From Zetaproteobacteria bacterium (lineage in GTDB: Bacteria > Pseudomonadota > Zetaproteobacteria > Mariprofundales > Mariprofundaceae): a stretch of 64,000 nucleotides of DNA. Shown one piece after another: positions 1-17,700 of this stretch; the stretch's first letter is position 1; every line of letters starts with the position of its first letter. Position numbers and translations under genes: made by a program. Location: NCBI GenBank assembly GCA_003696795.1, contig RFFT01000036.1:5128-69127 (forward strand), given 5' to 3'. The notes beneath the pieces were generated by a model. It made no database searches, had not been told where the DNA came from, and worked only from the letters and a program-made list of their open reading frames with translations.

Positions 1-2337
1 ACCCGCCAGGCGCGCGCGCGGGGATGGGACGTGACCATCGTGTCCACCGACAAGGATCTGATGCAACTGGTCGACGATCATGTCCGTTTGCTGGACACGA
101 TGCGCAACACCTCCTATGGCCCCGCCGAGGTACGCGAAAAATGGGGGGTTCCGCCGGAGCGGGTCCACGACCTGCTGGCGCTGACCGGCGACAGCTCGGA
201 CAACATCCCCGGCGTGCCCGGCATCGGCCCGAAAACGGCGGCCCAGTTGCTGGCCCAGTACGGCGATCTGGAAGGCGTGCTTCGCCATGCGCCCGAAATC
301 CGCCAGCGCAAGCGGCGCGAGAACCTGGTCGAGCACGCGGACGACGCGCGTCTGTCCTATCGTCTCGTCGCCCTGCATGACGAGGTGCCACTGCCTTGCA
401 CGCTGGACGACCTGGCGGCACGGGAACCCGACCGCACGCGGCTTGGCGCCCTGTTCCAAGAGCTTGAGTTCCGCCGACTGGCGCGGGAATTCGCCGACGC
501 GCCATCCGCCCCGCCGACCTCGACTCCGGCCCGGCAGGATCAGCGGGTCGACAACGAGGGGGCGCTCGCCGCCATGATCGCGCACCTGCGCGACGCCGAA
601 CTGCTGGCCATCGACACCGAAACCACCTCGCTAAACACGCGCGACGCCAAGCTGGTCGGCCTCGCCTTGGCCACCTCCGCCGAGCGCGCCTGGTACATTC
701 CCCTTGCGCACCAGGAACCCAACGCGCCGCAACTTTCCTGGGAGCGGGTGCGCGCGGCGCTGAAACCGATTCTCGAAGACGCCTCGCTGCCGAAGTGCGG
801 CCACAACCTGAAATACGACCTGCAGGTGCTGCGTCGCGCGGGGATCGAACTGGCCGGCATTCGTTTCGACTCGATGCTGCTCGCCTACTGCCTGCACCCC
901 GGCAAGTATCCCCCCAGCCTGGACAATGTGGCGCAGGACCATCTCGGCCATCGCTGCATCAGCTACGAACAGGTGGTCGGCAAGGGAGCAAAGAAGCTCA
1001 GCTTCGCCCAGGTGCCGATCGAACGCGCGCTTCCCTACGCCTGCGAGGACGCGGCGATCGCCTGGCAACTGAGCCGCAAGCTGAGCGCGCTGCTGGCCGA
1101 ACAACAACGGCTCAAGCGACACGACGACATCGAGCTGCCGCTGATGCATGTGCTGGCGGACATGGAGTGGCGGGGCGCGGGCATCGATCCGGACATGCTG
1201 GCACGCCTTTCGCACGCCTTTGGCGCGCGCCTGCGCGAACTCGAACAGGCCATTCATCGCGCCGCCGGCGAAACGTTCAACATTCATTCGCCACGCCAGC
1301 TGGGCGTACTGCTGTTCGAAAAGCTGGCCCTGCCCGGCGGCAAGAAAACCAAGTCCGGCCAATGGTCCACCACCCAGGACGTCCTGGAGACGCTGGCCGA
1401 GGAACACGAAGTCCCGCGCCTGATCCTCCAGGCGCGCGCATTGAGCAAGCTGAAATCGACCTATACCGACGCGCTCAGGCGTCTTGCGCATCCGGACACC
1501 AAGCGGGTGCATACCTCCTACAATCAAGCGATCACCACCACCGGGCGCCTGTCCTCGTCCGATCCCAATCTGCAGAACATTCCGGTGCGCAGCGCCGAGG
1601 GGCGGGAAATTCGCAAGGCCTTCGTCGCGCCGCCCGGCTTTGTCCTGCTCGCCGCCGATTATTCGCAGATCGAGCTGCGCCTGATGGCACACTTCTCCCG
1701 CGACGCGGCGCTGCTGCGCGCCTTTGCACAAGGGGAGGACATCCATGCGGCGACCGCGGCGGCGATCCATGGGGTGCCGTTGGAGGCGGTCAGCGGCGAG
1801 ATGCGCCGCGAGGCCAAGATCATCAATTTCGGCATCCTGTACGGCATGGGTCCATTTGGCTTGAGCAAGCAGTTGGGCATTTCGCGCGCCGAAGCCAGAG
1901 CCTTCATCGACGCCTATTTCGCGCGCCATCCCGACGTGCGCGCGTTTCTCGACCAAACCCTGGCGCATGCGCGCGAACACGGCCATGTCGAAACCCTGCT
2001 CGGCCACCGCGTGCCGATCCCGGACATCCATGCCAGAAACGGCATGCGCCGCCAGTACGCCGAACGCACGGCGATCAACGCGCCGCTGCAGGGCTCGGCG
2101 GCGGACATCATCAAGGTGGCCATGATCCGACTGCACCGCGAACTGCGCGCGCGCTGGCCTGAAGCGCACATGATTCTGCAGGTGCATGACGAACTGGTCG
2201 TCGAATGCCCCGCATCCGAGGCCGAACAAGTCGCCGCCGCCATGCGCAGGATCATGGAGCAGGCGGTGCAACTGCGCGTTCCCTTGGTGGTGGATATCGG
2301 ACAGGGACGCAACTGGTATGAAGCGCATCGGCTCTAG
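1..2337 (+). CDS. polA: DNA polymerase I; the 5' end lies upstream of the window
   Basis: The frame is open from base 1 (listed ORF 31..2337). It starts inside the 5' nuclease domain. It has the 3'-5' exo motif LAIDTETTSL and Pol I motifs A/B/C: DYSQIELR, RREAKIINFGILYGM, QVHDELVVE. Confidence 0.95.
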   Translation, partial: TRQARARGWDVTIVSTDKDLMQLVDDHVRLLDTMRNTSYGPAEVREKWGVPPERVHDLLALTGDSSDNIPGVPGIGPKTAAQLLAQYGDLEGVLRHAPEIRQRKRRENLVEHADDARLSYRLVALHDEVPLPCTLDDLAAREPDRTRLGALFQELEFRRLAREFADAPSAPPTSTPARQDQRVDNEGALAAMIAHLRDAELLAIDTETTSLNTRDAKLVGLALATSAERAWYIPLAHQEPNAPQLSWERVRAALKPILEDASLPKCGHNLKYDLQVLRRAGIELAGIRFDSMLLAYCLHPGKYPPSLDNVAQDHLGHRCISYEQVVGKGAKKLSFAQVPIERALPYACEDAAIAWQLSRKLSALLAEQQRLKRHDDIELPLMHVLADMEWRGAGIDPDMLARLSHAFGARLRELEQAIHRAAGETFNIHSPRQLGVLLFEKLALPGGKKTKSGQWSTTQDVLETLAEEHEVPRLILQARALSKLKSTYTDALRRLAHPDTKRVHTSYNQAITTTGRLSSSDPNLQNIPVRSAEGREIRKAFVAPPGFVLLAADYSQIELRLMAHFSRDAALLRAFAQGEDIHAATAAAIHGVPLEAVSGEMRREAKIINFGILYGMGPFGLSKQLGISRAEARAFIDAYFARHPDVRAFLDQTLAHAREHGHVETLLGHRVPIPDIHARNGMRRQYAERTAINAPLQGSAADIIKVAMIRLHRELRARWPEAHMILQVHDELVVECPASEAEQVAAAMRRIMEQAVQLRVPLVVDIGQGRNWYEAHRL

Positions 2338-3436
2338 CCTGCTGATCGCACTCATTCTGCTCGCCGGCTGTACCCACCGCCCCCCCGCGCCATCGCAGCC
2401 TACCTATCGCCCGGCGAGCTGGCGGCAATTGCCCGCCTGGCGCGGCAATGACCTGCGTCCCTCGCTTGCCGCCCTGCTGCAAAGTTGCAAGGCGCTGAAC
2501 ACGCGACCGGCCTGGCATGCGATCTGCGCCGTCGCAGGCAAGCTCGACGCCAACGACAACGCGCGTATCCGCGCCTTTTTCGAGCGCCACTTTCGTCCCT
2601 GGCAATTGCGCGATCGCCGCGGTCGACAACAAGGACTGATCACCGGCTACTACGAACCCATACTGCACGGCAGCCGCACGCCGGATGCGCGCTTCCGCTA
2701 TCCGGTCTATGGCGTACCGGACGATCTGCTGCGCATCGAGTTGGACGATGTCTATCCGCAGCTCAAGGGGCTGCGCCTGCGTGGCCGGCTGGTCGGCAAA
2801 CGTGTGGTTCCCTATTACACGCGCAAAGAGATCGAGGCGGGTAAGTCGCCCGTCGGCAAGGCGTTGCTTTGGGTGGATGATCCGATCGAACTGTTTTTCC
2901 TGCACGTGCAAGGCTCGGGCCGCATCCGCCTACAGGACGGCTCGTTGCTGCGCGTCGGCTACGCCGACCAGAATGGCCACCCCTACCGTTCGATCGGCAA
3001 GCGGCTTGTCGAGCAGGGCGAGTTGAGCTATGAGCAGGTATCGTTGCAATCGATCCGTGCTTGGGCCAGGGCGCACCCCGAACGCGTGCCCGCGCTGCTG
3101 GCCAGCAATCCGAGCTACGTATTCTTCCGCATCTTGCCCGACGACCTGACGGCGCCGCTCGGCGCCCTCGGCGTCCCCCTCACCGGCGGCTACAGCCTGG
3201 CCGTGGACCGGCGGGTGATTCCGCTCGGCGCGCCTGTCTATCTGGACACGCAATGGCCCAACGCGCGAAAACCCCTGCGGCGACTGATGATGGCGCAGGA
3301 TACCGGCGGCGCCATCAAGGGCGCGATCCGCGCCGATTTCTTTTGGGGGTCCGGCACGAAAGCGGGCGAACTGGCGGGACGCATGAAACAGGCGGGGCGC
3401 ATCTGGGTGCTGCTGCCACGCGGGCAAACCCCATGA
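2318..3436 (+). CDS. mltA: membrane-bound lytic murein transglycosylase A (lipoprotein)
   Basis: This is the internal ATG of ORF 2186..3436. It gives the signal/lipobox MKRIGSSLLIALILLAGC. The ITGYYEP, FFLHVQGSG and GAIKG...DFFWG regions are typical of MltA/3D-domain proteins. It overlaps the polA stop by 20 nt. Confidence 0.85.
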   Translation: MKRIGSSLLIALILLAGCTHRPPAPSQPTYRPASWRQLPAWRGNDLRPSLAALLQSCKALNTRPAWHAICAVAGKLDANDNARIRAFFERHFRPWQLRDRRGRQQGLITGYYEPILHGSRTPDARFRYPVYGVPDDLLRIELDDVYPQLKGLRLRGRLVGKRVVPYYTRKEIEAGKSPVGKALLWVDDPIELFFLHVQGSGRIRLQDGSLLRVGYADQNGHPYRSIGKRLVEQGELSYEQVSLQSIRAWARAHPERVPALLASNPSYVFFRILPDDLTAPLGALGVPLTGGYSLAVDRRVIPLGAPVYLDTQWPNARKPLRRLMMAQDTGGAIKGAIRADFFWGSGTKAGELAGRMKQAGRIWVLLPRGQTP

Positions 3437-4689
3437 GCGTCTGGCGCGCGCTGCTCTCGCGCAACATGTTGATCTGCGTCTTCACCGGCTTCACCTCCGG
3501 CCTGCCGCTCTATCTGCTGCTCAATCTGGTGCCCGCCTGGCTGCGCAGCGAGCAGGTGGATCTCGCCACGATCGGACTGTTCGCGCTGATCCAGTTTCCC
3601 TACACCTGGAAGTTCGTCTGGGCGCCGTTCCTCGATCGCTTCGCGTTGCCCTGGCTGGGCAGGCGGCGCGGCTGGATGCTGCTCAGCCAGCTCGCGCTGC
3701 TCGCGTTGATCGCCGCCCTGGGGGCGTTCCGACCCGGAGAGGATCTGGGCATGATCGTGCTGCTGGCCGTGCTGCTCGCGTTTCTCTCGGCCACCCAGGA
3801 CATTGCGCTGGACGCCTATCGGCGGGAGCTGCTTGCCGAGCGCGAACTGGGGCTTGGCAACGCGATCCATATCAACGCCTATCGCATCGCCGGGCTGGTG
3901 CCCGGCTCGCTGTCGCTGATTTTGGCCGACCACCTGCCGTGGCACACGGTGTTCGCGATCACTGCCTTGTTCATGCTGCCCGGCATGCTGATGACCCTGC
4001 TGGTCAAGGAACCCGATGTCGCAAGCCCGCCCCGCACCCTGCGCGAGGCGGTCGTGGAGCCCTTGCGCGAATTCTTTCAGCGCAAAGGGGTGCGCGACGC
4101 GCTCAGCGTCCTTGCCTTTCTGTTCCTATATAAACTGGGCGATAGCATGTGCACCGCGCTTGCCACCCCGTTTTATCTCGACATGGGGTACAGCAAGACC
4201 GAAATTGGCCTGATTGCGAAAAACGCCGGTCTCTGGCCGTCGGTGATCGGCGGCATTCTCGGCGGCCTGTGGATGATCCGTATCGGCATCAACAAGGCCT
4301 TGTGGCTGTTCGGCATCGTCCAGCTTGCCTCCATTCTCGGCTTCGCCTGGCTCGCTGCGCTCGGGCCGCATGCCTCCATCGATGCGACTGCCCTGGCGCA
4401 GCTTGCGCTGGTCATCGGCTTCGAAGCCTTCGGGGTCGGCGTTGGCACGGCGGCGTTCGTCGCCTTTATCGCCCACAGCACCCATCCCGCCTATACCGCG
4501 ACCCAATTCGCCCTGTTTACGAGCCTTGCCGCCATCCCGCGCACCTTCGTGAACGCCAGCACCGGTTGGATGGTCGAGCAGATGGGCTGGCTCGGCTTCT
4601 TCCTGCTCTGCGCTCTGCTCGCCATTCCGGGCATGTTGCTGTTGCTCAAGGTGGCGCCCTGGCATGGCGAGTGCCGCCGGGTTGTCTAA
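3433..4689 (+). CDS. ampG: AmpG-family muropeptide MFS permease
   Basis: The ATG at 3433 overlaps the mltA stop (ATGA). The protein is polytopic with an AmpG-like N-terminus ([10 protein letters not shown]...[17 protein letters not shown]). Confidence 0.85.
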
Positions 4690-4742
4690 CATGCGCGCGC
4701 TCCGTATGCTTCGCGCCTACCACGAACCATAGAGAGGAAGCC

Positions 4743-5087
4743 ATGGCGTTTGTTGTTACCCAGCTTTGCAAGGATTGCGTCGATACGGCCTGTGTCGCGG
4801 TGTGCCCGGTGGACTGCTTCTATCAGCCCAAGGAAATCACCGAGGAAACCCCGAACATGCTGTTCATCTCTCCCGAAGAGTGCATCGACTGCGCGGTATG
4901 CGAGCCGGAGTGCCCATGGGAAGCGATCTACCCGGAGGAGGATGTGCCCGAGGTCTTCGCGGGCGACATCGCGCTGAACGAGATGTGCGATACGCATCGC
5001 GAGCTGTTCGAACTGGCCGAGGTGGTCGAGAAGGAGCCGCCGACACCAGAGCAGGTGGCCGCCAACAAGGCCAAGTACGGTCTGTAA
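4743..5087 (+). CDS. 7Fe (3Fe-4S + 4Fe-4S) ferredoxin, FdxA type
   Basis: [22 protein letters not shown] (CxxCxxxxCxxxCP) plus [12 protein letters not shown]. It is the internal start of ORF 4149..5087. Confidence 0.85.
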
Positions 5088-5107
5088 TACCCTTGCTCCC
5101 GATTGCT

Positions 5108-5143
5108 GGCCCGCGCCGCAACCGGTTGGCGCGGGCCTTTTTT
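5108..5143 (+). terminator. rho-independent terminator after the ferredoxin gene
   Basis: GGCCCGCGCC-(10 nt loop)-GGCGCGGGCC followed by TTTTTT, starting 21 nt after the stop codon. Confidence 0.6.
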
Positions 5144-5157
5144 GTCGCCAACGAAGC

Positions 5158-6225
5158 ATGACCGAACCCGTCTCGATTCTCGAACTGGACCGTGGCGCGT
5201 TGGAAGCGTTATGTGCGCGCGCAGGCGCCAAACCGGTGCATGCCGAAGCCCTGCAGGCGCATGTCTTTCGCCGTGGCCGGCTGGATCTTGACGCGATCCC
5301 GGACCTGCCGCGCACCCTGCGCCACTGGCTTGCCCATCACCTGCGCACCGATCTGCCGCCCGTGCTCGCCCGCCGGCAATCGAGCGATGGCACGGAAAAG
5401 CTGCTATTGGGCATGGCGGACGGCAAGGAAGTCGAAACGGTCCTGATTCCGGCCGCCAAACGCCTGACCCAGTGCATCTCCACCCAGGTGGGCTGTGCAA
5501 TCGGCTGCACATTCTGCCTCACCGCATCCGCGGGGCTGGTTCGCCATCTTTCGACCGGCGAGATGGTCGCCCAGGTTATGGCCGCCTGGCGGCTGCGCGG
5601 CGAACGCGCACGCAACCTGGTGCTGATGGGCATGGGTGAACCGTTGCACAACTACGAAGCAGTGGCGCGATTCGTGCGCACCGCGACCGATCCGAAGGGA
5701 ATGGCCTTTTCGCCCAACCGCATCACGCTCTCGACCGCCGGACTCGTGCCGGGCATTCGCCGCATGCAGGCCGACGCACTACCCTGCAACCTGGCCGTCT
5801 CCCTGAACGCGACCACGGACGCGGTGCGCGACCGCATCATGCCCATCAATCGCAAATATCCGCTGGCCGAATTGCTTGCCGCGATCCGCGACTATATCGC
5901 CGCGCGCGGCGGTAAACGCGTCCTGATCGAATATGTGCTGCTGGACGGCATCAACGACACGCCCGCCGATGCCCGTCGCCTCAGCGGCCTGCTCGCCGAT
6001 CTCGACATCACGATCAATCTGCTGCCGTTCAACGCCCATGCCGCAGCCCCCTATGGGCGACCGGACGAGCGGCGGGTTGCCGCATTCCGCGACATCCTGC
6101 AGCAAGCTGGTTTCGTCACCGTGGTGCGCGATTCGCGCGGGCGGGACATCTCCGCCGCCTGCGGTCAATTGCGCACCGAGATCCGTCAGCGGCGGCGCAC
6201 TACTGAATATCCTTGTCCGGAATAA
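5158..6225 (+). CDS. rlmN: 23S rRNA/tRNA (adenine-C2)-methyltransferase, radical SAM
   Basis: Radical-SAM cluster motif CAIGCTFC, later GMGEPL, and the C-terminal catalytic Cys region DISAACGQL. Confidence 0.9.
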   Translation: MTEPVSILELDRGALEALCARAGAKPVHAEALQAHVFRRGRLDLDAIPDLPRTLRHWLAHHLRTDLPPVLARRQSSDGTEKLLLGMADGKEVETVLIPAAKRLTQCISTQVGCAIGCTFCLTASAGLVRHLSTGEMVAQVMAAWRLRGERARNLVLMGMGEPLHNYEAVARFVRTATDPKGMAFSPNRITLSTAGLVPGIRRMQADALPCNLAVSLNATTDAVRDRIMPINRKYPLAELLAAIRDYIAARGGKRVLIEYVLLDGINDTPADARRLSGLLADLDITINLLPFNAHAAAPYGRPDERRVAAFRDILQQAGFVTVVRDSRGRDISAACGQLRTEIRQRRRTTEYPCPE

Positions 6226-6895
6226 TCAACATCTCCACCCGTCGGTTGAGCTGACGTCCCGCCGCCGTTGCGTTGCTCGCCCGCGGCTGGGTTTCACCCG
6301 CACCGAAGGTATGAATGCGCGTGCCCGCAACCCCGCGCCGCATCAGATACGCCTTGACCGCCTCCGCCCTGCGCTCGGACAGCCGCTGATTGTAGGCTGC
6401 CGAACCGGTCGAGTCGGTATGCCCGGTGATCTCGATCGTGGTGCGCGAATAGCGTTTGAGAATGTCGGCCACCTTGTCCAGGGTGTCGTAAAAAGCAGGA
6501 TTGATCTCGGCAGAATCCACCGCGAACGAAACCTCGTTGCTCATCGTAATCTTCAGGTTCTCGTTCTTCAGCCGCTCGATCTCCACCTGATGCTGCGCCC
6601 GCTCGCGCGCCAACCGTTGCTCGAACTCGGCCTGCTGCTTGTCCATGTAATGCCCGACGCCGGCGCCGATCGCGCCTCCCGCCGCCGCGCCAATCAACGC
6701 ACCGCGCAAAGCGCCACCGGAATGGTCTCCCTGATAGCCGATCACGGCTCCGGCCAGCGCGCCCAGCGCCGCCCCCGCCGCCGCCGATTCCTTGGCATGC
6801 CGATTCGGATCGTCCGGCGTGGTGGCGCATGCGCTCAACATCGCCCCCACCGCGATCGTTCCCATCCATTTCCTGTTCATCGCCATCACCTCCAT
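6200..6895 (-). CDS. OmpA-family peptidoglycan-binding lipoprotein with a glycine-zipper segment
   Basis: Lipobox GAMLSAC. Gly-zipper GAALGALAGAVIG...GALIGAAAGGAIGAGVG. OmpA_C-like ITGHTDSTGSAAYNQRLSERRAEAV. Its start codon overlaps the GT2 stop by 1 nt. Confidence 0.8.
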   Translation of the reverse strand: MEVMAMNRKWMGTIAVGAMLSACATTPDDPNRHAKESAAAGAALGALAGAVIGYQGDHSGGALRGALIGAAAGGAIGAGVGHYMDKQQAEFEQRLARERAQHQVEIERLKNENLKITMSNEVSFAVDSAEINPAFYDTLDKVADILKRYSRTTIEITGHTDSTGSAAYNQRLSERRAEAVKAYLMRRGVAGTRIHTFGAGETQPRASNATAAGRQLNRRVEMLIIPDKDIQ

Positions 6896-8307
6896 CAGGC
6901 CCGCTTGTTCCAGCGGCCATGCCGCGTCATCTTACCCCAGCCACCTTTTTGGCGAAAGAGCCAACGCATGAACCCCATCAAACGAAAGAAGGCCACCATC
7001 TGCCGATAACCGAAGTTTTCCAACAAGGCCACAATCAGCAACACCAACACATGCCACGCTTTGGGATAGGTGTTGAACGACAACTCCTCAAGCAACAAGG
7101 CGGTAATCGAGAGCAATGTGCCCAGCGCAATCGCGGCGAACAGGAACACCAGAAACGTGGACCAGGCGATATAACCCCATAAATACAAAAGCAGCATCAG
7201 CACATAGCCGGCGATCTCGACCACCGGTCCCCACCATTCCACCACCACCATGAATGGGAACGCAAGCCATCCAACCACGCCCCCCCGGCGATGAAACAGA
7301 AGATCCCAATTCATCGTCAGGCTTTCCGAAACGCCGCGGTGCCACCGGACGCGCTGATTTTTCAGAATCCCCAGCCGCTCGGGCAATTCGGTCCAGCACA
7401 CCGCGTCGGCGATAAAGGTGATACGGTAGCGTTGTTTCCACTCCCGCATCTTGCGATGCAAACGCACCACCAACTCCATATCCTCGCCGACAGTATCCGT
7501 GCGATAACCGCCAACCGCGACCACCGCATCCTTGCGAAAGAGCCCGAATGCACCGGAGATGATCAGCAGACTGTTGACCAGTTCCCAGCCCAGGCGGCCG
7601 AACAGGAAGGCGCGCATGAACTCAACGATCTGAAACAGAGCCAATGGATTATTCGGCAGCCCCACCTTGAGCAGCACACCCTCGCGAATCTCGCAACCAT
7701 TGGCCGCGCGGATGATGCCTCCACAGGCGATCACCCGATCATCCTCCATGAATGGCCGCACCGCCCGCTGCAAACCCTGCTTGTGAATGATCGAGTCGGC
7801 GTCGACCGTGCAGAACAGCGGATAGCGAGAGACATTGATGCCCGCATTCAACGCATCCGCCTTGCCTCCGTTTTCCTTGTCCACCAGACAGAGGTTGGGG
7901 AAAACCGAAGAACGATAAATCGCGCGCACTGGCTTCGTCTCGATACGCTGCCAGTAAGGCTCCGGTATCTCCTCCATCGCAAACGCCTCGCGCACCACCC
8001 GCAAGGTATCGTCGCTGGAACCGTCATTGACGACAACCACCTCATGCTCGGGATAGTCCAACGCGAGCATCGACTGAATCGACGATACAATCGTGACTTC
8101 CTCATTGTAGGCGGGCACGAGCACGCTGATGGGAAGCTCGAATCCGGCGTAGATGGAGGGCAGCGCTGAGGCATCGACCGTCTCCAGATAACGCGAGATC
8201 GCCACCGATGCGCTCAAATTAAGCAGCAGGTATCCGCTATTGACCAAGGCAAAATAAACAAGGATCAATAGCTCGACGTCATGCACCAACTCCGGCGACA
8301 ACATCAA
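6895..8307 (-). CDS. processive family-2 glycosyltransferase (polysaccharide synthase-like, membrane-embedded)
   Basis: It has N- and C-terminal TM helices. Motifs: VPAYNEE, VVNDGSSDDT, TVDADS, GEDMEL, QRVRWHRG (the D, DxD, ED, QxxRW set of BcsA/PgaC/NodC-type synthases). Confidence 0.85.
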   Translation of the reverse strand: MMLSPELVHDVELLILVYFALVNSGYLLLNLSASVAISRYLETVDASALPSIYAGFELPISVLVPAYNEEVTIVSSIQSMLALDYPEHEVVVVNDGSSDDTLRVVREAFAMEEIPEPYWQRIETKPVRAIYRSSVFPNLCLVDKENGGKADALNAGINVSRYPLFCTVDADSIIHKQGLQRAVRPFMEDDRVIACGGIIRAANGCEIREGVLLKVGLPNNPLALFQIVEFMRAFLFGRLGWELVNSLLIISGAFGLFRKDAVVAVGGYRTDTVGEDMELVVRLHRKMREWKQRYRITFIADAVCWTELPERLGILKNQRVRWHRGVSESLTMNWDLLFHRRGGVVGWLAFPFMVVVEWWGPVVEIAGYVLMLLLYLWGYIAWSTFLVFLFAAIALGTLLSITALLLEELSFNTYPKAWHVLVLLIVALLENFGYRQMVAFFRLMGFMRWLFRQKGGWGKMTRHGRWNKRA

Positions 8308-9374
8308 GCCACCACGGTGCGCTCAGTCAACGCCTGCAACAGAGCATCGTGCGCGAAACGGTCCGGTGCATGCTCGATCATGCGCCGGATATTCTCTCTA
8401 TCGAGGTCCGGCAGGGAAATGATCGCCTGCACAGCGCGCACGCGCACCCAACGATTGCGATCCTCGGCGAGCTGGAGCAACCGCGCCACATCATCGCGAT
8501 TGCCGATGCGGCCCAACGCAATCGCGACCTGGGTACGGACCACCCATGATGGATGTCGGACAAGCGGGCGCACCATCGCCAGCGACCTCGCCAGCGGTAT
8601 GCGCCCCAGCAAATAGACGCATCCGGCGACGATATTCTCATCATGATCGTGCAAATACGCGCGCGCCACGCGCAGCGCATCCCGCGCATGAATCAGCTCG
8701 AGATAGCGGATCAGGCGCACGACATCCGTTGGTGACGCACGCAGCATCCAATCCGCCAACGGGGCGGACAGACGATCGGCCCCGATTTCCTGGAACAGGC
8801 CGGCAAGTCGATCCCGCGGCCAATGCCGGTGGCTGCTCAAACGGCGTAGCAAAGGCTCGATCGCCCGATCCGCATCGAGATGAACCAATGCCTCCATCGC
8901 GCTCAGAGACACAATATTTTGCGTATCATCCAGAAAGCGTTCCAGCACAGACCAATCGTCCGCCTCGCCGAAATCGCCCAGTGCGCGAAGAGCGCGCAAA
9001 CGGATGCGCAGATCGCGCGCGCGCAGTCGCACGCGCGCCCGTTCCACCAGGCCGTATCGATGGGCAAAATCGATCATCCGTTGGCGATAGTCCGCATCGT
9101 TGACCGCCTCGAACATGCGACACCACAAATCGATCACCGCGTCAAACACATAGCCGCGCAGCGGCGACAACGATACTTCTTCCCCCGCAAGCCAGCCCAG
9201 CATCGCGGACCTCCAGCGCAAACGCGCGACCCGTTTGCGACGCTGTCTGAACGAGAACAGCAAACGCAGGGCGATGATTTGCACAATCAGGAACAGCACC
9301 ATGGCCATGGACACCACGCCGATCCAGAAGAAAACCTCAACAATCGGGTCAGAAGCGGTATAAAAGTCCAACAT
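8304..9374 (-). CDS. membrane-anchored HEAT-repeat protein
   Basis: One N-terminal TM helix (FFWIGVVSMAMVLFLIVQIIALRLLF) followed by HEAT/PBS-lyase-like repeats (for example HPSWVVRTQVAIALGRIGNRDDVARLLQLAEDRNRWVRVRAVQAI). Its stop overlaps the GT2 start (ATGA). The start was chosen at MLDFY; 9398 or 9464 are also possible. Confidence 0.65.
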   Translation of the reverse strand: MLDFYTASDPIVEVFFWIGVVSMAMVLFLIVQIIALRLLFSFRQRRKRVARLRWRSAMLGWLAGEEVSLSPLRGYVFDAVIDLWCRMFEAVNDADYRQRMIDFAHRYGLVERARVRLRARDLRIRLRALRALGDFGEADDWSVLERFLDDTQNIVSLSAMEALVHLDADRAIEPLLRRLSSHRHWPRDRLAGLFQEIGADRLSAPLADWMLRASPTDVVRLIRYLELIHARDALRVARAYLHDHDENIVAGCVYLLGRIPLARSLAMVRPLVRHPSWVVRTQVAIALGRIGNRDDVARLLQLAEDRNRWVRVRAVQAIISLPDLDRENIRRMIEHAPDRFAHDALLQALTERTVVA

Positions 9375-10590
9375 GTCCACCCCACCGGTTATAGACATGC
9401 CCTTGATGATGGACGTGCAAGCCCCAGGCCGTTCCCCAGCGCGCATTCCACCAATGACGGCCATGCACAGTCACATTCCATACCGGAGTAATGGCCACCC
9501 GAGTCGGGCTGATACGCTCCACCTCCTTACCCACCGTATACGCCACGCCAAGCCGGTTATCGGTGGAATAATAATGATCCAGGGTCAGGACATGGTTCGA
9601 ACCGTTGCCGGCCTGAATCACCTGCGCCCAATTGAAGGTGTAGCTGGCGCGGAAGTTCCCGAAATACCGCTCCACCATCCCGCTGTAGGTCCAAGTTTGC
9701 GACTCGGGATAATGGGTCTGCCGCACACCCAGTTGCAGCCCCCAACCATCGGGTAGGGAAAGCAACGCGCCCCCCATCCACGAACTGCTGGGCATAAAGC
9801 GATGGCCGGGACTGAACTGGAGGTCGGCAAACAAATGCCCCCAATCCAGCACCGGAATCCCACCACCTACGGTTAGTTGCACATCCTGCAATTGATAACG
9901 TGTCACATTCTCCGCCATGGCATGAAACGAACGGTCTTGCGCGTCTTTCATGCGGAACGCCAGGTATTCGCTGGACCAATTGGCGAACCCATTGTTCAGT
10001 TGACTATAGGAGCCTCCCACTTCCAGCTCACGCTGCACACTCTTTTCCTCGCGCACCACCCGCTGCCTGTGCCGATGGAGAGACGGCGTGTCTTGCTCTC
10101 GCTGCCACCAATCGCGGTCGGGAAAGGCAATCGCGGCCTCGGTGCGGAACCAATCGACATCCACGCCCCCATGCTCCGCACCCGGGGTAGTCAGAATCTT
10201 CCACTCCAATTTCCAGGCATCCTCATAGCCGGGATTGCGCGCGCGCAACGCCTCCAGGATACGCAATGCGCGCGGGTAATCGCGCATCCAGGTATAAACT
10301 TGGGCCTGGCCGAAGAGATAATCGGCGTTTTGCCCATCCCGACGCAACAGCAACGCATATTGCGCCAACGCCTGTTGATAATGCCCCTGCCATGACAGCA
10401 GCCGCGCCAGCAGGAACCGCCCCTCCATATCCCGCGGCGCCTCTTGAAGATGTTGGCGCAACAGGCGTTCAGCCTGGACATACGCTCCCGCCTTCGCCAG
10501 ATCCCGAGCCCGCTGCACAGGCGACGATGCGTCCTGTGCCCACACGGCCTGAATCCATAGCAGCATCACAATCGTCAACCACCAGCGCAT
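9349..10590 (-). CDS. outer-membrane protein with an N-terminal TPR-like region and a C-terminal beta-barrel (PgaA/NfrA/YaiO-like architecture)
   Basis: Signal peptide MRWWLTIVMLLWIQAVWA/QD. TPR-like helices (AYVQAERLLRQHL..., YQQALAQYALLL..., YPRALRILEAL...). The C-terminal half has alternating aromatic/Gly strands and ends ...GLLYRF (terminal Phe). Confidence 0.65.
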   Translation of the reverse strand: MRWWLTIVMLLWIQAVWAQDASSPVQRARDLAKAGAYVQAERLLRQHLQEAPRDMEGRFLLARLLSWQGHYQQALAQYALLLRRDGQNADYLFGQAQVYTWMRDYPRALRILEALRARNPGYEDAWKLEWKILTTPGAEHGGVDVDWFRTEAAIAFPDRDWWQREQDTPSLHRHRQRVVREEKSVQRELEVGGSYSQLNNGFANWSSEYLAFRMKDAQDRSFHAMAENVTRYQLQDVQLTVGGGIPVLDWGHLFADLQFSPGHRFMPSSSWMGGALLSLPDGWGLQLGVRQTHYPESQTWTYSGMVERYFGNFRASYTFNWAQVIQAGNGSNHVLTLDHYYSTDNRLGVAYTVGKEVERISPTRVAITPVWNVTVHGRHWWNARWGTAWGLHVHHQGHVYNRWGGHVGLLYRF

Positions 10591-11018
10591 ATTCGCTCCC
10601 CTATCTTTTTTAGCCGGGCAACAAGTTCGCGCGGATAAAACGGCCGCCGGAGAAAGTCCTCAGCCCCTGCCTCAAGCATACGCACCGCCTCCTTCTCCTG
10701 AGTGCGGGACGTCAAAAACACGACCCGCACCGAACGCAGGCCGCGCTCCCGTATATGCGTAAGCAACTCCCCCCCGGAAACATAAGGGGGATTGATATCC
10801 GACACCACGATCACAGGCCCCTTAACGCGTTCCAGCCATTGCAATAGCTCCCTGCCATCCGCCACCGCTTGTACATCGAAGCCGGCACGGGTGAGAAAGA
10901 ACACGAGCAATTCCCGGATATCCGGGTCGACCTCCACCACAAGCACCAACGGTGTTGGCGGAATTCGCTTCGTCACATCCCCTCCCATGCCGCAATACTC
11001 TGGAAAACCTCTTCCCAT
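10575..11018 (-). CDS. stand-alone response-regulator receiver domain, atypical
   Basis: It has a CheY-like fold pattern (LVLVVEVDPDIRELL ... VIVVSDINPP ... VVFLTSR ... EDFLRRPF). Its stop overlaps the next gene by 16 nt. The start is uncertain (11018 or 10988). Confidence 0.75.
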   Translation of the reverse strand: MGRGFPEYCGMGGDVTKRIPPTPLVLVVEVDPDIRELLVFFLTRAGFDVQAVADGRELLQWLERVKGPVIVVSDINPPYVSGGELLTHIRERGLRSVRVVFLTSRTQEKEAVRMLEAGAEDFLRRPFYPRELVARLKKIGERICAGG

Positions 11019-11034
11019 TCTCCTGCGAAGTCAA

Positions 11035-11056
11035 ACGCTTGCGCGTTCGCAAGCGT
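11035..11056. promoter_or_regulatory. perfect 9-4-9 inverted repeat in a divergent intergenic region
   Basis: ACGCTTGCG-cgtt-CGCAAGCGT lies between the receiver gene (minus) and the esterase gene (plus). Function is unknown. Confidence 0.25.
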
Positions 11057-11092
11057 GGTGCGCACTAGGCGTTTGCGTTAGCATCCCCGGCG

Positions 11093-11785
11093 ATGCAAAG
11101 CTTGCCGCACATCACCCTTGAAACCGGCCCCAACCCTCGCGGAGCGGTCATCTGGCTGCATGGGCTCGGCGCGGATGGGCACGATTTCGAACCCATCGTG
11201 CTCCAGCTCGGTCTGCCGCGGGACATGCCGCTGCGCTTTATCTTCCCGCACGCGCCGGCCATGCCGGTAACCATCAACGGCGGCTATGTCATGCCGGCCT
11301 GGTACGATATCCGCCGCGACGATCTCGGTGTCGAACATGACGAGGCGGGCATCATGCGCTCCGCGCTTGCCATCCAGGCGCTGATCGAGCAGCAAAACAT
11401 GAAGGGAATCGACAACCGGCGCATTGTCCTGGCCGGCTTTTCCCAGGGCGCGGCGATGGCGCTCCATCTTGGACTTCGCCTGCGCGAGCGCCTGGCCGGC
11501 ATCATCGCGCTGTCCGGCTACCTGCTGCTGCCCGCGCGCCTAGCCAAGGAAGCCACAAGGGCGGCACTGGAAACGCCGGTGTTCATGGCCCATGGCCTGG
11601 ACGATCCCATCGTGCCCATCACGCTTGCCGAAGCGGCGCATGACCGGCTCGCAAGGCTCGGCGTCGAGGTCGCATGGCACACCTATCCGATGGCGCACCA
11701 GGTGTGCCCCGAGGAAGTTCGCGCCATCGGACGCTGGCTTCAGGAGATCTTGTCCAGCCCCGCCACTTCCTCCGCCTCGACATAA
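11093..11785 (+). CDS. carboxylesterase/phospholipase-family alpha/beta hydrolase
   Basis: WLHGLGADGHDF, nucleophile elbow GFSQGAAMAL, then AHGLDDPIVP and YPMAHQV (Ser-Asp-His triad pattern). Confidence 0.8.
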   Translation: MQSLPHITLETGPNPRGAVIWLHGLGADGHDFEPIVLQLGLPRDMPLRFIFPHAPAMPVTINGGYVMPAWYDIRRDDLGVEHDEAGIMRSALAIQALIEQQNMKGIDNRRIVLAGFSQGAAMALHLGLRLRERLAGIIALSGYLLLPARLAKEATRAALETPVFMAHGLDDPIVPITLAEAAHDRLARLGVEVAWHTYPMAHQVCPEEVRAIGRWLQEILSSPATSSAST

Positions 11786-12528
11786 ACGCATCCCGGATAC
11801 ACCGGACCGACATCGACGATATACCAGCAGCCGGCACGCAGGCCCAGCTCCACATCGAACACATCGCCCTCGCGCACCAGCTGCAGAATCGCGTCCGGCA
11901 GGCGAACGGGACCATAGTCCTGCTGCTGGCTGTCGAAACGAAACAGCACGCCATCCGCAACCAGCGCATAGGCGCGCGCATGCCCTTCGACGAAACGATC
12001 AAACGGCTTGCCACGCGCCTCCGGCGCCATCGCGCAGCCCGAACGCGCATAGTCGTAGAGCGCGCGTGCCAACACCGCGGCGCGCATCGCCTCCGGCACG
12101 ACCTCCTTCAACATCGCGTCGAATTCGAGGAACTGGCGACCGGGCCAATAGCCTCGATCGCGCAAAAAGGTGAACCAGCCGGCCAACACCTCCCCCGCGA
12201 CGCGAATCATCTCGCTATTGGCCGACTCGCGCAGCAAGAACCAGCCGACGAATTCGCGCACATGGCCGCTGTGCAAACGGGATAGCGGTGCCGCGCCCAA
12301 ATCGTGCGCCGGTTCGACATCGCCATCGAGCAACTGCATCATCTGCGCTTCCAGCGCGTCCTCCCATTCGCTCATCTCGCCCTGCTCGTCTTCGTCCATA
12401 TCCTGAAACAGGTCCGAGCAATGGACCAGGTAGCGCGCCAGTTGCTCGAACAACTCCGCTGTCTGTGCTGCGCTCGTGTTGGCGCGCTGTTGCAGATATT
12501 CATCCATCGCCTGCTGCAAGGCCAACAT
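11740..12528 (-). CDS. hypothetical protein (no recognisable domain), acidic N-terminal segment
   Basis: The internal ATG of ORF 11740..12714 is preceded by AAGGAGG. The protein has an acidic run DMDEDEQGEMSEWEDALE. The gene is divergent from efp. Confidence 0.55.
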   Translation of the reverse strand: MLALQQAMDEYLQQRANTSAAQTAELFEQLARYLVHCSDLFQDMDEDEQGEMSEWEDALEAQMMQLLDGDVEPAHDLGAAPLSRLHSGHVREFVGWFLLRESANSEMIRVAGEVLAGWFTFLRDRGYWPGRQFLEFDAMLKEVVPEAMRAAVLARALYDYARSGCAMAPEARGKPFDRFVEGHARAYALVADGVLFRFDSQQQDYGPVRLPDAILQLVREGDVFDVELGLRAGCWYIVDVGPVYPGCVYVEAEEVAGLDKIS

Positions 12529-12630
12529 CGTTTGTCCACCTCCTTGGCCGCGCTTGCCGATCACGCACGATCTAGCTATGTTGCGCCTGCCGCCGAAACG
12601 GCCAATACTATCGTATCGGGAGTCAGATGT

Positions 12631-13191
12631 ATGCAGATCAATGCCACCAGCATTCGTCCGGGAAATATCCTGCAAGTGGACGGCAGCCTTTGGCGGGTGA
12701 TGAAAACCCAGCATGTCACCCCCGGCAAGGGTGTGGCCTGCATGCAGGTCGAGATGCGCAACATCGAAACCGGCAACAAGACCAACAAGCGATTCAATTC
12801 AACCGAGCGCGTCGAGCGGGTCACCCTGTCCCAGCGCGAGATGCAGTTTCTGTATGCCGATGGCGACCAATATCATTTCATGGACATGGAAACCTACGAC
12901 CAGGTAACCCTGGGCCGCGACATGCTCGAACACGCGCTTCCCTACCTGTTGCCTGAAATGCAGGTGATCATCGAATTCCACGAAGACCGCCCGCTGAACG
13001 TGCAACTGCCGCAAACCGTGGTGCTGACCGTCGTCGAGTGCGACGCGGCGATCAAGGGACAAACGGCAACCGGCTCCTACAAGCCGGGCAAGCTTGAAAC
13101 CGGCGCGCCGATCATGGTGCCGCCCTATCTCGAGCCCGGCACGCGCGTGAAGGTGAACGCCGAAACCGGCGAATACATCGAGCGTGCCTGA
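12631..13191 (+). CDS. efp: elongation factor P
   Basis: MQINATSIRPGNILQVDG..., tip loop HVTPGKGVA, C-terminal IKGQTATGSYKPGKLETGAPIMVPPY. It is the internal start of ORF 12304..13191. Confidence 0.93.
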   Translation: MQINATSIRPGNILQVDGSLWRVMKTQHVTPGKGVACMQVEMRNIETGNKTNKRFNSTERVERVTLSQREMQFLYADGDQYHFMDMETYDQVTLGRDMLEHALPYLLPEMQVIIEFHEDRPLNVQLPQTVVLTVVECDAAIKGQTATGSYKPGKLETGAPIMVPPYLEPGTRVKVNAETGEYIERA

Positions 13192-13223: not shown

Positions 13224-14705
13224 ATGACCATGCGCCGAGCGCTTGCCGTGCTCCTTGTCGCCGTTTGCGTCGCGCCGCTCGTGGCTGTCGCGGAGGAGGC
13301 GGTGGACCTGGCCACCGTCCTGCGCAAGGTGCTCGCCGCCCACCCCGAGCTGGACGTTGCGCGCATCGACAGCGCGATCGCGGATACGGCATCCGCACAG
13401 CTTGCCGGCATGCTCGATACGCGGGCCACCGCCAAAGCCGGCATCGCCCAGAATCAAACCCCGGTCAACAGCAGTTTCCAGCCGATCGAAACCCGCACCG
13501 CGCAGCTGACCGCCGGGTTGACCAAGCCGCTGGCCACGGGTGACACCGTGGGCGTCGCGCTGGATTACAACCGCAGCAAGCAACTGTTCAATTCGCCGTT
13601 CATCAGCCAGCTGGCGGCGATCAATCCATCCTATCAAAGCCAGCTCAACATCAGCATCCGTCACCCGCTTGCGCAGGGAAAGGGGTTGCCCGCTTATCAT
13701 CAGGGGCTGCGCGCGGCCAAGGCGCGCCAACATGCCAGCCGATGGCAGCAGCGCATCATCGCCCATCAACTTGCCCTGCAGGCCTTGAACCTGTTTTACC
13801 AACTCGCATTGGACGACATCAATCTTCACTTTGCGCGCCTGGCCGTACAACGCGCCGAACGCCTGCTCGCCTATCAGCGCAAGCGCGAGGCCTTCGGCCT
13901 AGTCGAGGAAAGCGACCGCCTGCAAGCGGCGGCATTGCTGGCCCAGCGGCGCACCCAACTGGCCGAGGCCGAGGCACGGCGGGCCAATGACCAGAGCGCC
14001 CTGAACCGGCTCATGTTGCGCGATCCCGACGCTCCGCTGCGTGTGCGCCTGCCCGAGGACCCTCCCGCATCCCACATCCCGTCCCTTGCGCAGGCTGTGG
14101 ACAACGCACGCGCGCATCGCGCCGAGCTGAAAGCCATCGAGGAGCAACTCCAGGCCGCCGAAGCCGAACTGGAGATCGCGCGCGACAAACTGCGCGCCCA
14201 GCTCGATCTGGTCGCCGAACTTGGCACGCGCGCGCTGTCCGGATCGGCGGGCACCACGCTCGCCCGCACCTTCAGCATCAACGACCATTATGCCGCGCTT
14301 TCGCTGGAATTCTCAGACGCGATCGAGGGGCGCGCCGAACGCGCCGCCGTCCGCGCGGCCGAACTCAAACGCGAACGCGCGCTGGCCGAGCGGCGCAAGG
14401 CGCTGGAAAGCATTCGCGACGAACTGGCACGCGCCGCCACCCAAATCCGCACCCTGGCGCCGACATTGCGCCTGGCACGCGTGCACGCCGCCGCCGAGCG
14501 CCGCAAATTTGCGCAGGAAATGACCCGCTATCGGCAAGGACGCAGCGATACGGCGAAGCTGATTCAGTTCGAAGGCGACCTGCATAACGCGGAGCTGCTC
14601 GCCGAGCTGAAACATGTGCAATGGCTGCTTGCCTGCCAACAATACCGCTGGGCGCAGGGCATGCTGCTTGCGGCACTGAACGTGCCGACTGCGAACGGGA
14701 GCTGA
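13224..14705 (+). CDS. TolC-family outer-membrane efflux protein
   Basis: Signal peptide MTMRRALAVLLVAVCVAPLVAVA. The two-repeat coiled-coil/beta pattern is typical of OEP/TolC proteins. Confidence 0.85.
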   Translation: MTMRRALAVLLVAVCVAPLVAVAEEAVDLATVLRKVLAAHPELDVARIDSAIADTASAQLAGMLDTRATAKAGIAQNQTPVNSSFQPIETRTAQLTAGLTKPLATGDTVGVALDYNRSKQLFNSPFISQLAAINPSYQSQLNISIRHPLAQGKGLPAYHQGLRAAKARQHASRWQQRIIAHQLALQALNLFYQLALDDINLHFARLAVQRAERLLAYQRKREAFGLVEESDRLQAAALLAQRRTQLAEAEARRANDQSALNRLMLRDPDAPLRVRLPEDPPASHIPSLAQAVDNARAHRAELKAIEEQLQAAEAELEIARDKLRAQLDLVAELGTRALSGSAGTTLARTFSINDHYAALSLEFSDAIEGRAERAAVRAAELKRERALAERRKALESIRDELARAATQIRTLAPTLRLARVHAAAERRKFAQEMTRYRQGRSDTAKLIQFEGDLHNAELLAELKHVQWLLACQQYRWAQGMLLAALNVPTANGS

Positions 14706-14711
14706 CTGCGG

Positions 14712-17700
14712 ATGCAACGGATGATCGCCTTCTTCGTCCGGCGCGGGGTTATCGTCAACCTGCTGTCGCTGTTTCTGCTGTTCGCCGGCATTTACGCGGC
14801 GCTGAACATTCAACGCGAGGCTTTTCCGAGCGTGAACTTCGATGTCGTGGTCATCAACGCCGCCTATCCCGGCGCCGCCCCGCGCGAAGTCGAGCGCCTG
14901 CTGGTCACCCCGATCGAACGCGAGTTGAAAGGCGTCAACGGCATCAATGCGATCCGCTCCACCGCCTATCTTGGCCGCATGCAAATCACGATCGAAGTCG
15001 ATCCGGACTACGAGGATCGCTCACGCCTGGTTTCCGACGTGCAGCAAGCCATCAACCGCGCCGACCTGCCAAGCGACCTGCCCGCCGATCCGCTGATCAC
15101 CGAGGTCAAGTCCGAAGAGGCGCCGGTGCTCACCTTTTCGATTTTCGGTGACTTTACCCCGCTTGAACTCAAGCGCTTATCGGACGAGATCGAGGACGAT
15201 GTGCTGGATATCGACGGCGTGGCGAGAGTGCTGGTGCAAGGCGACCGCAAGCGCGAAATCCGCATCGTGCCAAACCCGGTTAAAATGCGTGCGCATCGCG
15301 TATCGATCAACGACATCATCACCCTGGTTCGCGGCTGGAACATCGACGCTCCGGGCGGCCGGCTGAAAGCGCCGGAAGGGCAAAGCATCATTCGCATCAC
15401 CGGCGAATTCCGCTCCGCCGATGACGCCGCGCACCTTGTGCTGCGCGCCAACGACCGAGGCCAGGCCCTGTATCTGGGCGATGTGGCCGAGGTACGCGAA
15501 ACATTGGAGCAGCCCAGCCGCTATGTGGGCGCGCAAGGCAAGCCGGCGGTCAACATGATCGTGCTGAAGAAGGGCGACAAAGACATCATCGAACTCGTCG
15601 ATGCGGTACGCGCGTACCTGAAAACCGTGCCCCAGCGTTACGGTGACAGGGTGCAAGTACGCGTTTACAACGATTTCTCCACGATCACCCGCTTGCGTCT
15701 GGGGGTCTTGACCAGCAATGGCGCGATCGGCCTTGCGCTGGTGCTCTTGACTCTGCTTCTCTTCCTGCGTCCGGCGGTCGCGTTCACCACCGCCTGGGGG
15801 CTGCCGGTCATCTTCTTTTCCGGACTGTTGGTGCTCTATCTAGCCGGCGTCACACTGAACCTGTTGACCATGTTCGGCTTCATCATGGTGCTGGGGCTGA
15901 TGGTCGACGATGCAATCATCATCGGCGAAAACGCGACCTGGCATATGGAACGGGGATTGAGCCCGGAACAAGCCGCCATCGTGGGCACCAACGAACTGCT
16001 CGGACCGGTCTCCGCCACCGTGCTGACCACCATTGTCGCCTTCCTGCCCCTGATGCACATGGATGGCATCATCGGCAAGTTCGTGTTCTCGATCCCTGTT
16101 GTGGTGGTCGTGCTGCTGCTGTTCTCGTGGCTGGAGGCGATCTTCATCCTGCCCAATCATATCCGCGACGTGGCCAACCCGAACAAGCATCCGGGCGAGC
16201 GGCGACTGTTCGTCTGGCTCACCGGGCTTTATGCCCGGAGCCTGGAGAAGGCGCTGAAGTTGCGTTATCTCACCATCCTGCTCACGCTGATGGGCCTTGC
16301 CGGCGCTCTGATGCTGGCGACCCATATGAAATTCCAGCTGTTCCCCGCCGGCGCCGAAAGCACGTTCTATCTGCGCGTCAACCTGCCTCCCGGCACAACA
16401 CTCGAACAAACCTGGGACACCCTGGTACGCATCGACCGCGAAGTGCGCAAGCGCATCGATCCGGCCATCCTGGAAACGACGACGATGATCGCGGGCGAAA
16501 ACAGCGCCGATCAACGCGAGGCGCTGAAGCAACTGGGCGATCGCTTCGGCTTCGTGCGCGTGATCCTGATCCCATTCACCGAGCGATCGATCTCCGCGTA
16601 TACGGTCATGCAACGCATCCAGCGCGAGCTACCGCCGCTGTTCCCCAAGCTGGACATCAGTTTCGCGATGCAAAAGCCCGGCCCCCCGGTCGGACGCGCG
16701 CTGCAGGTCGAGCTCACCGGCAAGGACGAAACCGCGCTGACCCGGGTGGCCCGTCGGCTGGAGGCCATGCTGCGTGACATTCCGGGCGCGCACGCGATCG
16801 AATCGGATCTGGAGGCCGGCGACCCCGAGCTGCATATCGTGCTCGACCGCAAGCTGGCGGCCTATGCCGGCATCGATCTGGCCACCGTGGCCACCCATAT
16901 TCGGGCCGCGTTTGACGGCCTGCGCGTATCCACCCTGAAGCGCGGCAAGGAGGAAGTGGATGTCACCATCCGCTATCCCGAAGCGGCCAAGCATGATTTA
17001 CGCACCCTGTTGCAACTGGAAATTCCGAACCGACGCGGCGGCCTGATTCCGCTTGGGCGGGTGGCGCACCTGGCAAGCGCAAGCGGTCTGAACAGCGTGC
17101 GCCACAAGGATGGCAATCGGGTGATCAATGTTTCCGCGGAAGTGGATACGCAACGTCTCACCTCCAAGCAACTGAATCGCATCGTACGCGCACGCGCCGC
17201 GCAATGGCTGGGCGAGGATGCCGCCAGGGTCCATTATCATCTCGGTGGCGAGGAAGAGCGTAGCCAGGAATCCGTGCGTGGGCTGCTGTTCAGTTTCGTG
17301 TTCGCCCTGCTCGGCATCTTTGTGATTCTGGCCATCCAGTTCAACAGCATCGGCTATCCGATCCTGGTCATGCTGGCGATTCCGTTTGGCGCGATTGGCA
17401 TCGTCGTCGGCTTTTTCCTGCACGGACAACCGATCTCGTTCATGGCCCTGATGGGCTTCGTCGCGCTTTCCGGGGTGGTGGTCAACGCCTCGCTGGTCAT
17501 GGCGGTGTTCATCCAGCGCCAGCTTGCCGCGGGCGTTCCCTGGCGCAGTGCCATTGTCGAGAGCGGCAAGCGCCGGCTGCGCGCGGTGCTGCTGACCGCG
17601 ATCACCACCGTGGTCGGGCTACTGCCCACCGCCTACGGCTGGGGTGGCCACGATCCGTTCGTGGCGCCGATGGCGCTCGCGCTTTCCTGGGGGCTGATGT

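Follow-up and report, generated by a model that had tools for sequence, protein, structure and literature searches.

We describe here four minus-strand genes at positions 6895-11018 of a 64,000-nucleotide stretch of DNA (the window) from a Zetaproteobacteria bacterium of the family Mariprofundaceae (contig RFFT01000036.1). The genes encode a receiver, a protein with TPR repeats and an outer-membrane beta-barrel of the YaiO type, a HEAT-repeat protein, and a membrane-embedded glycosyltransferase of family 2 (GT2). Together they are probably a member of a widespread, uncharacterised four-part system for synthase-dependent polysaccharide production, working by the mechanism proposed below. Synthase-dependent exopolysaccharide systems, such as those for cellulose, poly-N-acetylglucosamine (PNAG), alginate, Pel and Nfr, are central to biofilm biology. 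The general hallmark of such systems, an inner-membrane synthase and a TPR/beta-barrel exporter encoded together, here in overlapping genes, is found in the window. The original prediction, made from the same DNA, was of a distinct polysaccharide synthesis and export machine of five genes; its core idea of a synthase and a TPR and barrel protein with non-canonical partners stands, but its inclusion of an OmpA-type lipoprotein as a partner does not.

In the proposed mechanism, GT2 would polymerise a nucleotide sugar and thread the chain through its own transmembrane channel, acting with an obligate single-pass partner, the HEAT protein, whose solenoid lies in the cytoplasm. The receiver would be the regulatory input, phosphorylated in most lineages via a relay of PAS/GAF hybrid kinases and Hpt proteins, often beside a REC-GGDEF cyclase, and the HEAT solenoid would couple the state of the receiver to the synthase. 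In diderms, the chain would pass to the periplasmic TPR arm and exit through the 14-strand YaiO-type barrel. In the window copy, the receiver has lost D13 and K109 and is probably a pseudo-receiver, a subunit that works independently of phosphorylation. PgaC and the chitin and hyaluronan synthases are the nearest relatives of GT2, and on this ground the sugar is most likely a UDP-hexose or UDP-N-acetylhexosamine. Characterisation of the system would define one or more new polymers and give the YaiO barrel family a first function, and it might reveal phosphorylation-based switching of a glycan synthase. For the iron-oxidising Zetaproteobacteria, the cassette would be a second candidate matrix-polysaccharide locus beside the xag-like sfz stalk cluster.

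The open reading frame (ORF) map and the reverse-strand sequence of the minus-strand block 6200-11018 were inspected, and the predicted run of five co-directional minus-strand genes was recovered. The first four, as placed by the ORF map, are:

10575-11018, minus strand: receiver ORF
9349-10590, minus strand: TPR and barrel ORF
8304-9374 (longest ORF up to 9464), minus strand: HEAT ORF
6895-8304 (ATG start) or 6895-8307 (TTG start), minus strand: GT2 ORF

The receiver and barrel genes overlap by the expected 16 nt (10575/10590) in both map and sequence, and with the ATG at 9374 taken as the HEAT start, the barrel and HEAT genes share the expected 26 nt (9349/9374); the same barrel/HEAT overlap is seen in the orthologues of two related loci (L001 and L002). 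An ATGA junction had been claimed between the HEAT and GT2 genes at 8304/8307, but the sequence there reads cTTGATGt, so that the overlap is 1 nt (TGATG) if GT2 starts at the ATG and 4 nt (TTGA) if it starts at the TTG.

GT2 is 469 aa long and matches the Pfam GT2 families and Chitin_synth_2. The processive-synthase motifs NDGS, DKENGGKAD, VDADS, GEDMEL and QRVRW are all present, among them those named in the prediction. They do not vary across 18 homologues at 56-75% identity, and neither do D94, D168xD170, G273-E274-D275 and Q317RxRW321. An AlphaFold2 (AF2) model from an 18-sequence alignment (pLDDT 76.6, pTM 0.79) contains, besides a GT-A domain and interface helices, one long N-terminal and four C-terminal transmembrane helices. 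Foldseek matched this model best, at TM-scores of 0.60-0.65, to hyaluronan synthases from a Chlorella virus and from Xenopus, and next to BcsA and chitin synthases. The protein thus combines the DxD, GED and QxxRW motifs with the transmembrane-bundle fold of membrane-embedded processive GT2s, and as modelled it is a processive, channel-forming synthase. Class I hyaluronan synthases, its best structural match, resemble it in length and in the arrangement of transmembrane helices, but they share only 14-17% identity with it and work alone, with no HEAT partner, receiver or outer-membrane pore. The C-terminal cytoplasmic tail of GT2 (residues ~440-469; window 6895-7000) carries W456-G457-x-M459-x-R461, invariant in the 18 homologues, and the HEAT protein or the receiver may dock on this WGxMTR tail.

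The TPR and barrel gene encodes a 413-aa protein whose Sec signal peptide ends in …AVWA/QD and whose C-terminus is …LLYRF. Profiles, signal peptide and model agree with the earlier description of a secreted protein with a TPR-like N-terminal half, a barrel-like C-terminal half and a final Phe. Both YaiO family cut-offs are passed, by TIGR04390 (110.7 bits vs 32, over model positions 2-230 of 230) and by PF19413 (55.5 vs 23.9), and TPR_19 was also matched in the profile search. A word-indexed homology search with this protein returned only 4 matches; a full HMMER scan returned 2339 relatives, and 47 sequences from it were used for an AF2 model. In this model (pLDDT 92.5), TPR helices at ~24-166 are followed by a disordered linker (168-182) and by 14 beta-strands (186-412), so that the protein models confidently as an outer-membrane beta-barrel, a point on which the prediction could have failed. 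Foldseek returned BcsC as the best PDB match, then general porins and the PgaA barrel (TMt 0.51), all with low TM-scores; as modelled, the protein is related to the TPR-porin exporters but smaller and distinct from them. Sequence searches of the PDB gave no solved structure closely related to GT2, the HEAT protein or the barrel protein.

The third protein, of ~356 aa, matches HEAT_2 (Pfam, 2.4e-23) and begins with a transmembrane helix followed by RQRRKRVARLRWR, as expected of the one-helix HEAT partner that had been proposed. Its sequence matches in the PDB are artificial alphaRep proteins. All 64 of the 64 orthologues have the N-terminal transmembrane helix and a K/R-rich stretch behind it, with more Lys/Arg after the helix than before it, and this excess places the HEAT solenoid in the cytoplasm, on the same side as the receiver and the catalytic domain of GT2. 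We infer that the HEAT protein is a co-subunit or regulatory adaptor of the synthase.

The GT2 family is large, with >8000 database proteins at E <= 1e-20 and at least 598 relatives in contigs representing one genome per species; the cassette occurs in at least ~600 species genomes from >10 phyla, and in archaea. For the linkage counts, ORFs were called in 82 loci drawn from these relatives and scored by phmmer, and then by profile hidden Markov models built from the matches. The gene-neighbourhood check suggested with the prediction came out in its favour, in that receiver and HEAT genes are conserved with GT2 across phyla in the 82 loci. A HEAT gene is present in 73/73 loci with at least 1.2 kb of upstream sequence and lies directly upstream of GT2 in 63; in the remaining 10, nine from Nitrospira and one from a Pseudomonadota metagenome-assembled genome (MAG; locus L016), it lies elsewhere in the locus. 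Of the 67 loci whose upstream flank is 3.5 kb or longer, 55 have a receiver gene upstream on the same strand. The YaiO barrel (48/67 related loci) occupies the gap between receiver and HEAT genes in Proteobacteria, lies downstream of GT2 in Lysobacter, Stenotrophomonas and Marinimicrobia, and is on the opposite strand in Nitrospira. Clustering of neighbourhood ORFs by BLAST single linkage suffered from shadow ORFs and revealed no other conserved family.

Pfam-labelled gene calls show the full order receiver–YaiO–HEAT–GT2, with overlapping genes, in Massilia, in Thiovibrio and on Mesorhizobium ciceri pMESCI01. Clostridium caldaquaticum has receiver–HEAT–GT2 without a barrel, two Halanaerobiales loci (L074 and L075) have HEAT–GT2 with no receiver detected nearby, and Deinococcus radiophilus has a TPR protein followed by HEAT and GT2, without a barrel or an annotated receiver. 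On the Haloarcula halophila plasmid NZ_CP119560.1 (L087, locus coordinates 3481-6428), a PAS histidine kinase gene lies ahead of a run of receiver, HEAT, GT2 and GAF histidine kinase genes; there is no barrel, the core genes overlap, and GT2 identity is 42%. The presence of the receiver–HEAT–GT2 core in a haloarchaeon implies either inter-domain transfer or great age. RefSeq product names at these loci are generic only. In Stenotrophomonas ginsengisoli, the gene after the barrel gene (L029, 9713-12139) encodes a protein of 809 aa that contains a Sulfatase domain (PF00884). The Sulfatase superfamily includes polymer-decorating transferases of the BcsG, OpgB and LtaS types, and the polymer of this locus may, to judge from the domain, be modified.

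Loci without a barrel bear on what the synthase makes. If GT2 and the HEAT protein made a membrane or periplasmic product, such as a glycolipid, NodC-like chito-oligosaccharides or a periplasmic glucan, the barrel would be an accessory, and the core would be expected to occur without it, as it does in monoderms, in archaea and in 19 of 67 loci. No polymer-modifying enzyme is encoded in the window, and in other clusters, related GT2s have been given the name monoglucosyl-diacylglycerol synthase (PMC4643136). We nevertheless regard this explanation as improbable. The QRxRW/GED/DxD set and the hyaluronan-synthase-like fold are typical of processive translocating synthases, the TPR and barrel gene is translationally coupled inside the proteobacterial cassettes and has the architecture of BcsC and PgaA, and synthases of monoderms and archaea require no outer-membrane pore. 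Secretion of a polymer, through the barrel in diderms, is the reading we prefer.

As a variant of synthase-dependent exopolysaccharide secretion, the receiver–HEAT–GT2(–YaiO) cassette, known here from genes and models, differs from the known loci. Pfam and NCBIfam profiles and BLAST agree with the earlier statement that PgaB, PgaD, BcsB, PilZ and MshEN are absent. Comparison with the pga, nfr, bcs and xag loci found none with the same components, with Xag set apart by published descriptions. PgaC, of similar size, is the nearest named enzyme to GT2 (25% identity over 299 aa, E = 6e-25), and PgaC_IcaA (TIGR03937) is its best NCBIfam match; the Pga synthase also has a membrane partner, the small PgaD, and an exporter, PgaA, built of TPR repeats and a beta-barrel. 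The PgaC score of 130.8 bits is, however, far under the equivalog cut-off of 422.3, and the PgaA model reaches 21.6 bits vs 366.65. Unlike Pga, the cassette has no PgaB deacetylase, its partner is the ~356-aa HEAT protein instead of the 137-aa PgaD, and it includes a 14-strand barrel of the YaiO family and a receiver gene. BLAST gave no match of the HEAT protein to PgaD, and no deacetylase is found among the neighbouring genes of the cassette.

The synthase of the Bcs system is likewise a processive GT2 and shows the QRxRW, GED (TED-like) and DxD motifs; its exporter is a TPR and barrel protein, BcsC, which is the best structural match of the window barrel. Here, in contrast, the synthase carries no PilZ domain, there is no BcsB or BcsZ, and the exporter has 413 aa vs ~1150. 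TIGR03030 (BcsA) scores 46.6 vs 699.1 bits and the BcsC model 16.2 vs 858, and Pfam profiles gave no match to PilZ or BcsB. Nfr shares with the window a small GT2 cassette with a TPR-containing outer-membrane protein, but NfrB has 745 aa and an MshEN domain, whereas the window GT2 has 469 aa, lacks MshEN and is partnered by the HEAT protein and the receiver. GT2 matches NfrB only at E = 4e-4 over 61 aa, T2SSE_N/MshEN is not matched, there is no significant match to the NfrA barrel, and the HEAT protein has none to YbcH. Nfr is gated by c-di-GMP, and its synthase carries the MshEN domain (PMC8669469).

Like Nfr, the Xag and Sfz loci are synthase-dependent cassettes of three or four genes that include a GT2 gene. 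The XagB-like/Sfz2 synthase is described as a ~690-aa fusion of T2SSE_N (MshEN) and GT2 with a BcsB-like neighbour (PMC8250860, PMC4643136), and by that description the window differs in its 469-aa GT2, without T2SSE_N, and in the lack of BcsB. The polymer of Xanthomonas xagABCD is undefined (PMC8042644). A search seeded with a Stenotrophomonas member returned no Xanthomonas protein among its 120 best relatives, and the X. oryzae xagA-D primers had no match above chance in the 82 loci. On the published architecture, this search and the primer comparison, orthology with Xag apparently does not hold. The proximity of PgaC, and the Xanthomonadales order HEAT–GT2–barrel, with GT2 in second place as in xagABCD, would be what one expects of a plain orthologue of Pga (PNAG), Nfr (poly-N-acetylmannosamine) or Xanthomonas Xag; against the scores and architectures given above, we consider such an identity very unlikely.

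Escherichia coli K-12 has a YaiO barrel of its own, in a co-directional block of yaiS, yaiP, yaiX and yaiO (NC_000913.3, 380069-384616; L085). As in the window, the barrel there is encoded beside a membrane GT2, YaiP (27% identity over the GT-A domain), but the block contains a deacetylase (yaiS) and an IS2-disrupted acyltransferase (yaiX) and has no HEAT protein, receiver or TPR arm. Its gene content suggests a cryptic locus for a synthase-dependent polysaccharide that has been inactivated. YaiO barrels are therefore paired with membrane GT2s more than once. Full-text literature searches found no paper that connects YaiO, HEAT proteins and GT2 synthases, and no published characterisation of a receiver–HEAT–GT2 cassette was found in the literature.

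The receiver has a clear receiver fold (Pfam Response_reg, 3.2e-22, 79.2 bits vs a cut-off of 30.2). Its longest ORF encodes 147 aa, and the likely start is GTG 10977 or ATG 10989 (~134-138 aa). Alignment to CheY and to orthologues gives E12, V13, D57, T87 and R109, an incomplete catalytic quintet. The label of an atypical receiver therefore fits the window copy (D13V, K109R), but not the family, which is mostly canonical: across 59 orthologues and the window copy, position 12 is D/E, D13 is present in 49/60, D57 in 52/60 and K109 in 58/60, and position 87 is T/S. Glu in place of the phospho-acceptor Asp57 is a classic phospho-mimic. The receiver of the closest relative (L084, 204-593) has E57 and R109, and this suggests from the residues that the zetaproteobacterial lineage has its receiver fixed in one signalling state. 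No kinase occurs within the annotated neighbourhood of the window cassette.

In other loci, signalling genes adjoin the cassette. These encode hybrid kinases (REC-PAS-PAS-HisKA-HATPase and GAF-PAS-HisKA-HATPase-REC), Hpt proteins, and Hpt-REC-GGDEF proteins, the last including cases beside Burkholderiales cassettes. In Neomarinimicrobiota (L060), Myxococcota (weaker) and an unclassified bacterial MAG, an (Hpt)-REC-GGDEF-REC protein replaces the stand-alone receiver, and the C-terminal REC of such fusions is the receiver orthologue. GGDEF is matched only weakly in the fusions (1e-7 to 1e-11), and these domains may be degenerate; a two-receiver protein in a Gemmatimonadales locus (L079) has no detected GGDEF. 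The two-receiver proteins are:

L052, 4461-5927: two-receiver protein
L060, 3951-5483: two-receiver protein
L049, 3809-5755: two-receiver protein
L079, 4266-5918: two-receiver protein

To our knowledge, every synthase-dependent system characterised so far (Bcs, Pga, Alg, Pel and Nfr) is gated by cyclic di-GMP. Such gating works via PilZ, MshEN, GGDEF I-site or PgaCD-type receptors. Together with the REC-GGDEF-REC fusions and the Hpt-REC-GGDEF genes of the Burkholderiales, this precedent favours a variant in which the machine is the same but cyclic di-GMP is the true post-translational signal. The HEAT protein would then be a PgaD- or BcsB-like structural co-subunit, possibly a cyclic di-GMP receptor, and the receiver would act upstream or on a linked cyclase and not on the synthase. 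We think this variant, the main rival, unlikely: profile searches found no PilZ, MshEN or GGDEF/EAL domain in the four proteins, a bare receiver is all that is present in the archaeal locus and in most proteobacterial ones, and the fusion GGDEF domains are the weakly matching ones described above. The preferred reading, with the receiver as regulatory input to the synthase, can be extended, tentatively, to an evolutionary one: receiver–HEAT–GT2 might be an ancient switchable synthase, gated by a phosphorelay beside or instead of cyclic di-GMP, to which the YaiO pore was added later in diderms. The receiver would dock on the membrane-tethered HEAT solenoid, and gating would be post-translational. 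If true, the cassettes would form a class of their own among synthase-dependent systems, and single-domain response regulators would have an output mechanism of a new kind.

Several observations weigh against the proposed four-part mechanism. The 19 loci of 67 that have no barrel within 7 kb include some from diderms (Massilia, Pseudomarimonas), and a receiver is missing from three loci of the Xanthomonadales type (L025, L026 and L029) whose upstream flanks are complete. The contacts among receiver, HEAT protein and GT2 are inferred from linkage and topology only. In the window itself, the receiver is degenerate and has no nearby kinase, so the phosphorelay part of the mechanism cannot apply literally to this copy.

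The fifth gene of the block, and the region upstream of the cassette, are placed by the ORF map as follows:

6200-6895 (longest reading; likely 6200-6880), minus strand: YiaD/OmpA-like ORF
11019-11092, no strand: divergent intergenic region that separates the receiver gene from a plus-strand carboxylesterase gene (Abhydrolase_2)

The fifth protein has OmpA_C and a glycine zipper, passes the YiaD family model NF053611 (245.1 bits vs a cut-off of 175) and carries the lipobox MLSAC. Its predicted identity as an OmpA-type peptidoglycan-anchoring lipoprotein thus holds, as a member of the YiaD family, but its proposed role as a partner in the system does not. Such a gene occurs in 2 of 82 loci and is never adjacent, and the closest relative, whose GT2 is 75% identical, has receiver–TPR/YaiO–HEAT–GT2 followed by a Mur ligase where the window has the OmpA gene. 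The GC content at third codon positions (GC3) is 0.64-0.73 in the four cassette genes, 0.76-0.85 in the flanks and 0.78 in yiaD. The cassette, with its lower GC3, looks acquired, and yiaD, with a flank-like value, looks resident. Its rarity, its lack of adjacency and its host-like GC3, with the Mur ligase in the closest relative, rule the lipoprotein out as a component, and the conserved system is one of four genes, not five. We regard yiaD as a resident neighbour, possibly co-transcribed here.

The 1-nt overlap of GT2 and the lipoprotein gene at 6895, which had been counted among the junctions, exists for the longest ORF but not with the likelier start at 6880. Both the lipoprotein signal MNRKWMGTIAVGAMLSAC and a GGAGG sequence (6893-6889) favour that start, which leaves a 14-nt gap after the GT2 stop. 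At its other end, yiaD (minus strand, ending at 6200) converges with rlmN (plus strand, ending at 6225), and the 26-nt overlap of their 3' ends leaves no space for a terminator between the two. Promoter-like and terminator-like matches within the block were at chance level only. The intergenic region 11019-11092 is presumed to hold the cassette promoter; no sigma-70 consensus match was found in it.

Beyond the carboxylesterase gene, a 324-aa ORF without a Pfam match (11740-12714, minus strand) lies before efp and overlaps both genes by a few tens of bases. An OEP and AcrB efflux pair of the resistance-nodulation-division type is encoded at window 13224-17795, with no membrane-fusion protein gene between the two among the ORFs scanned. 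On the other flank, window 2186-4689 encodes MltA and an AmpG-like permease of the major facilitator superfamily, both of peptidoglycan recycling.

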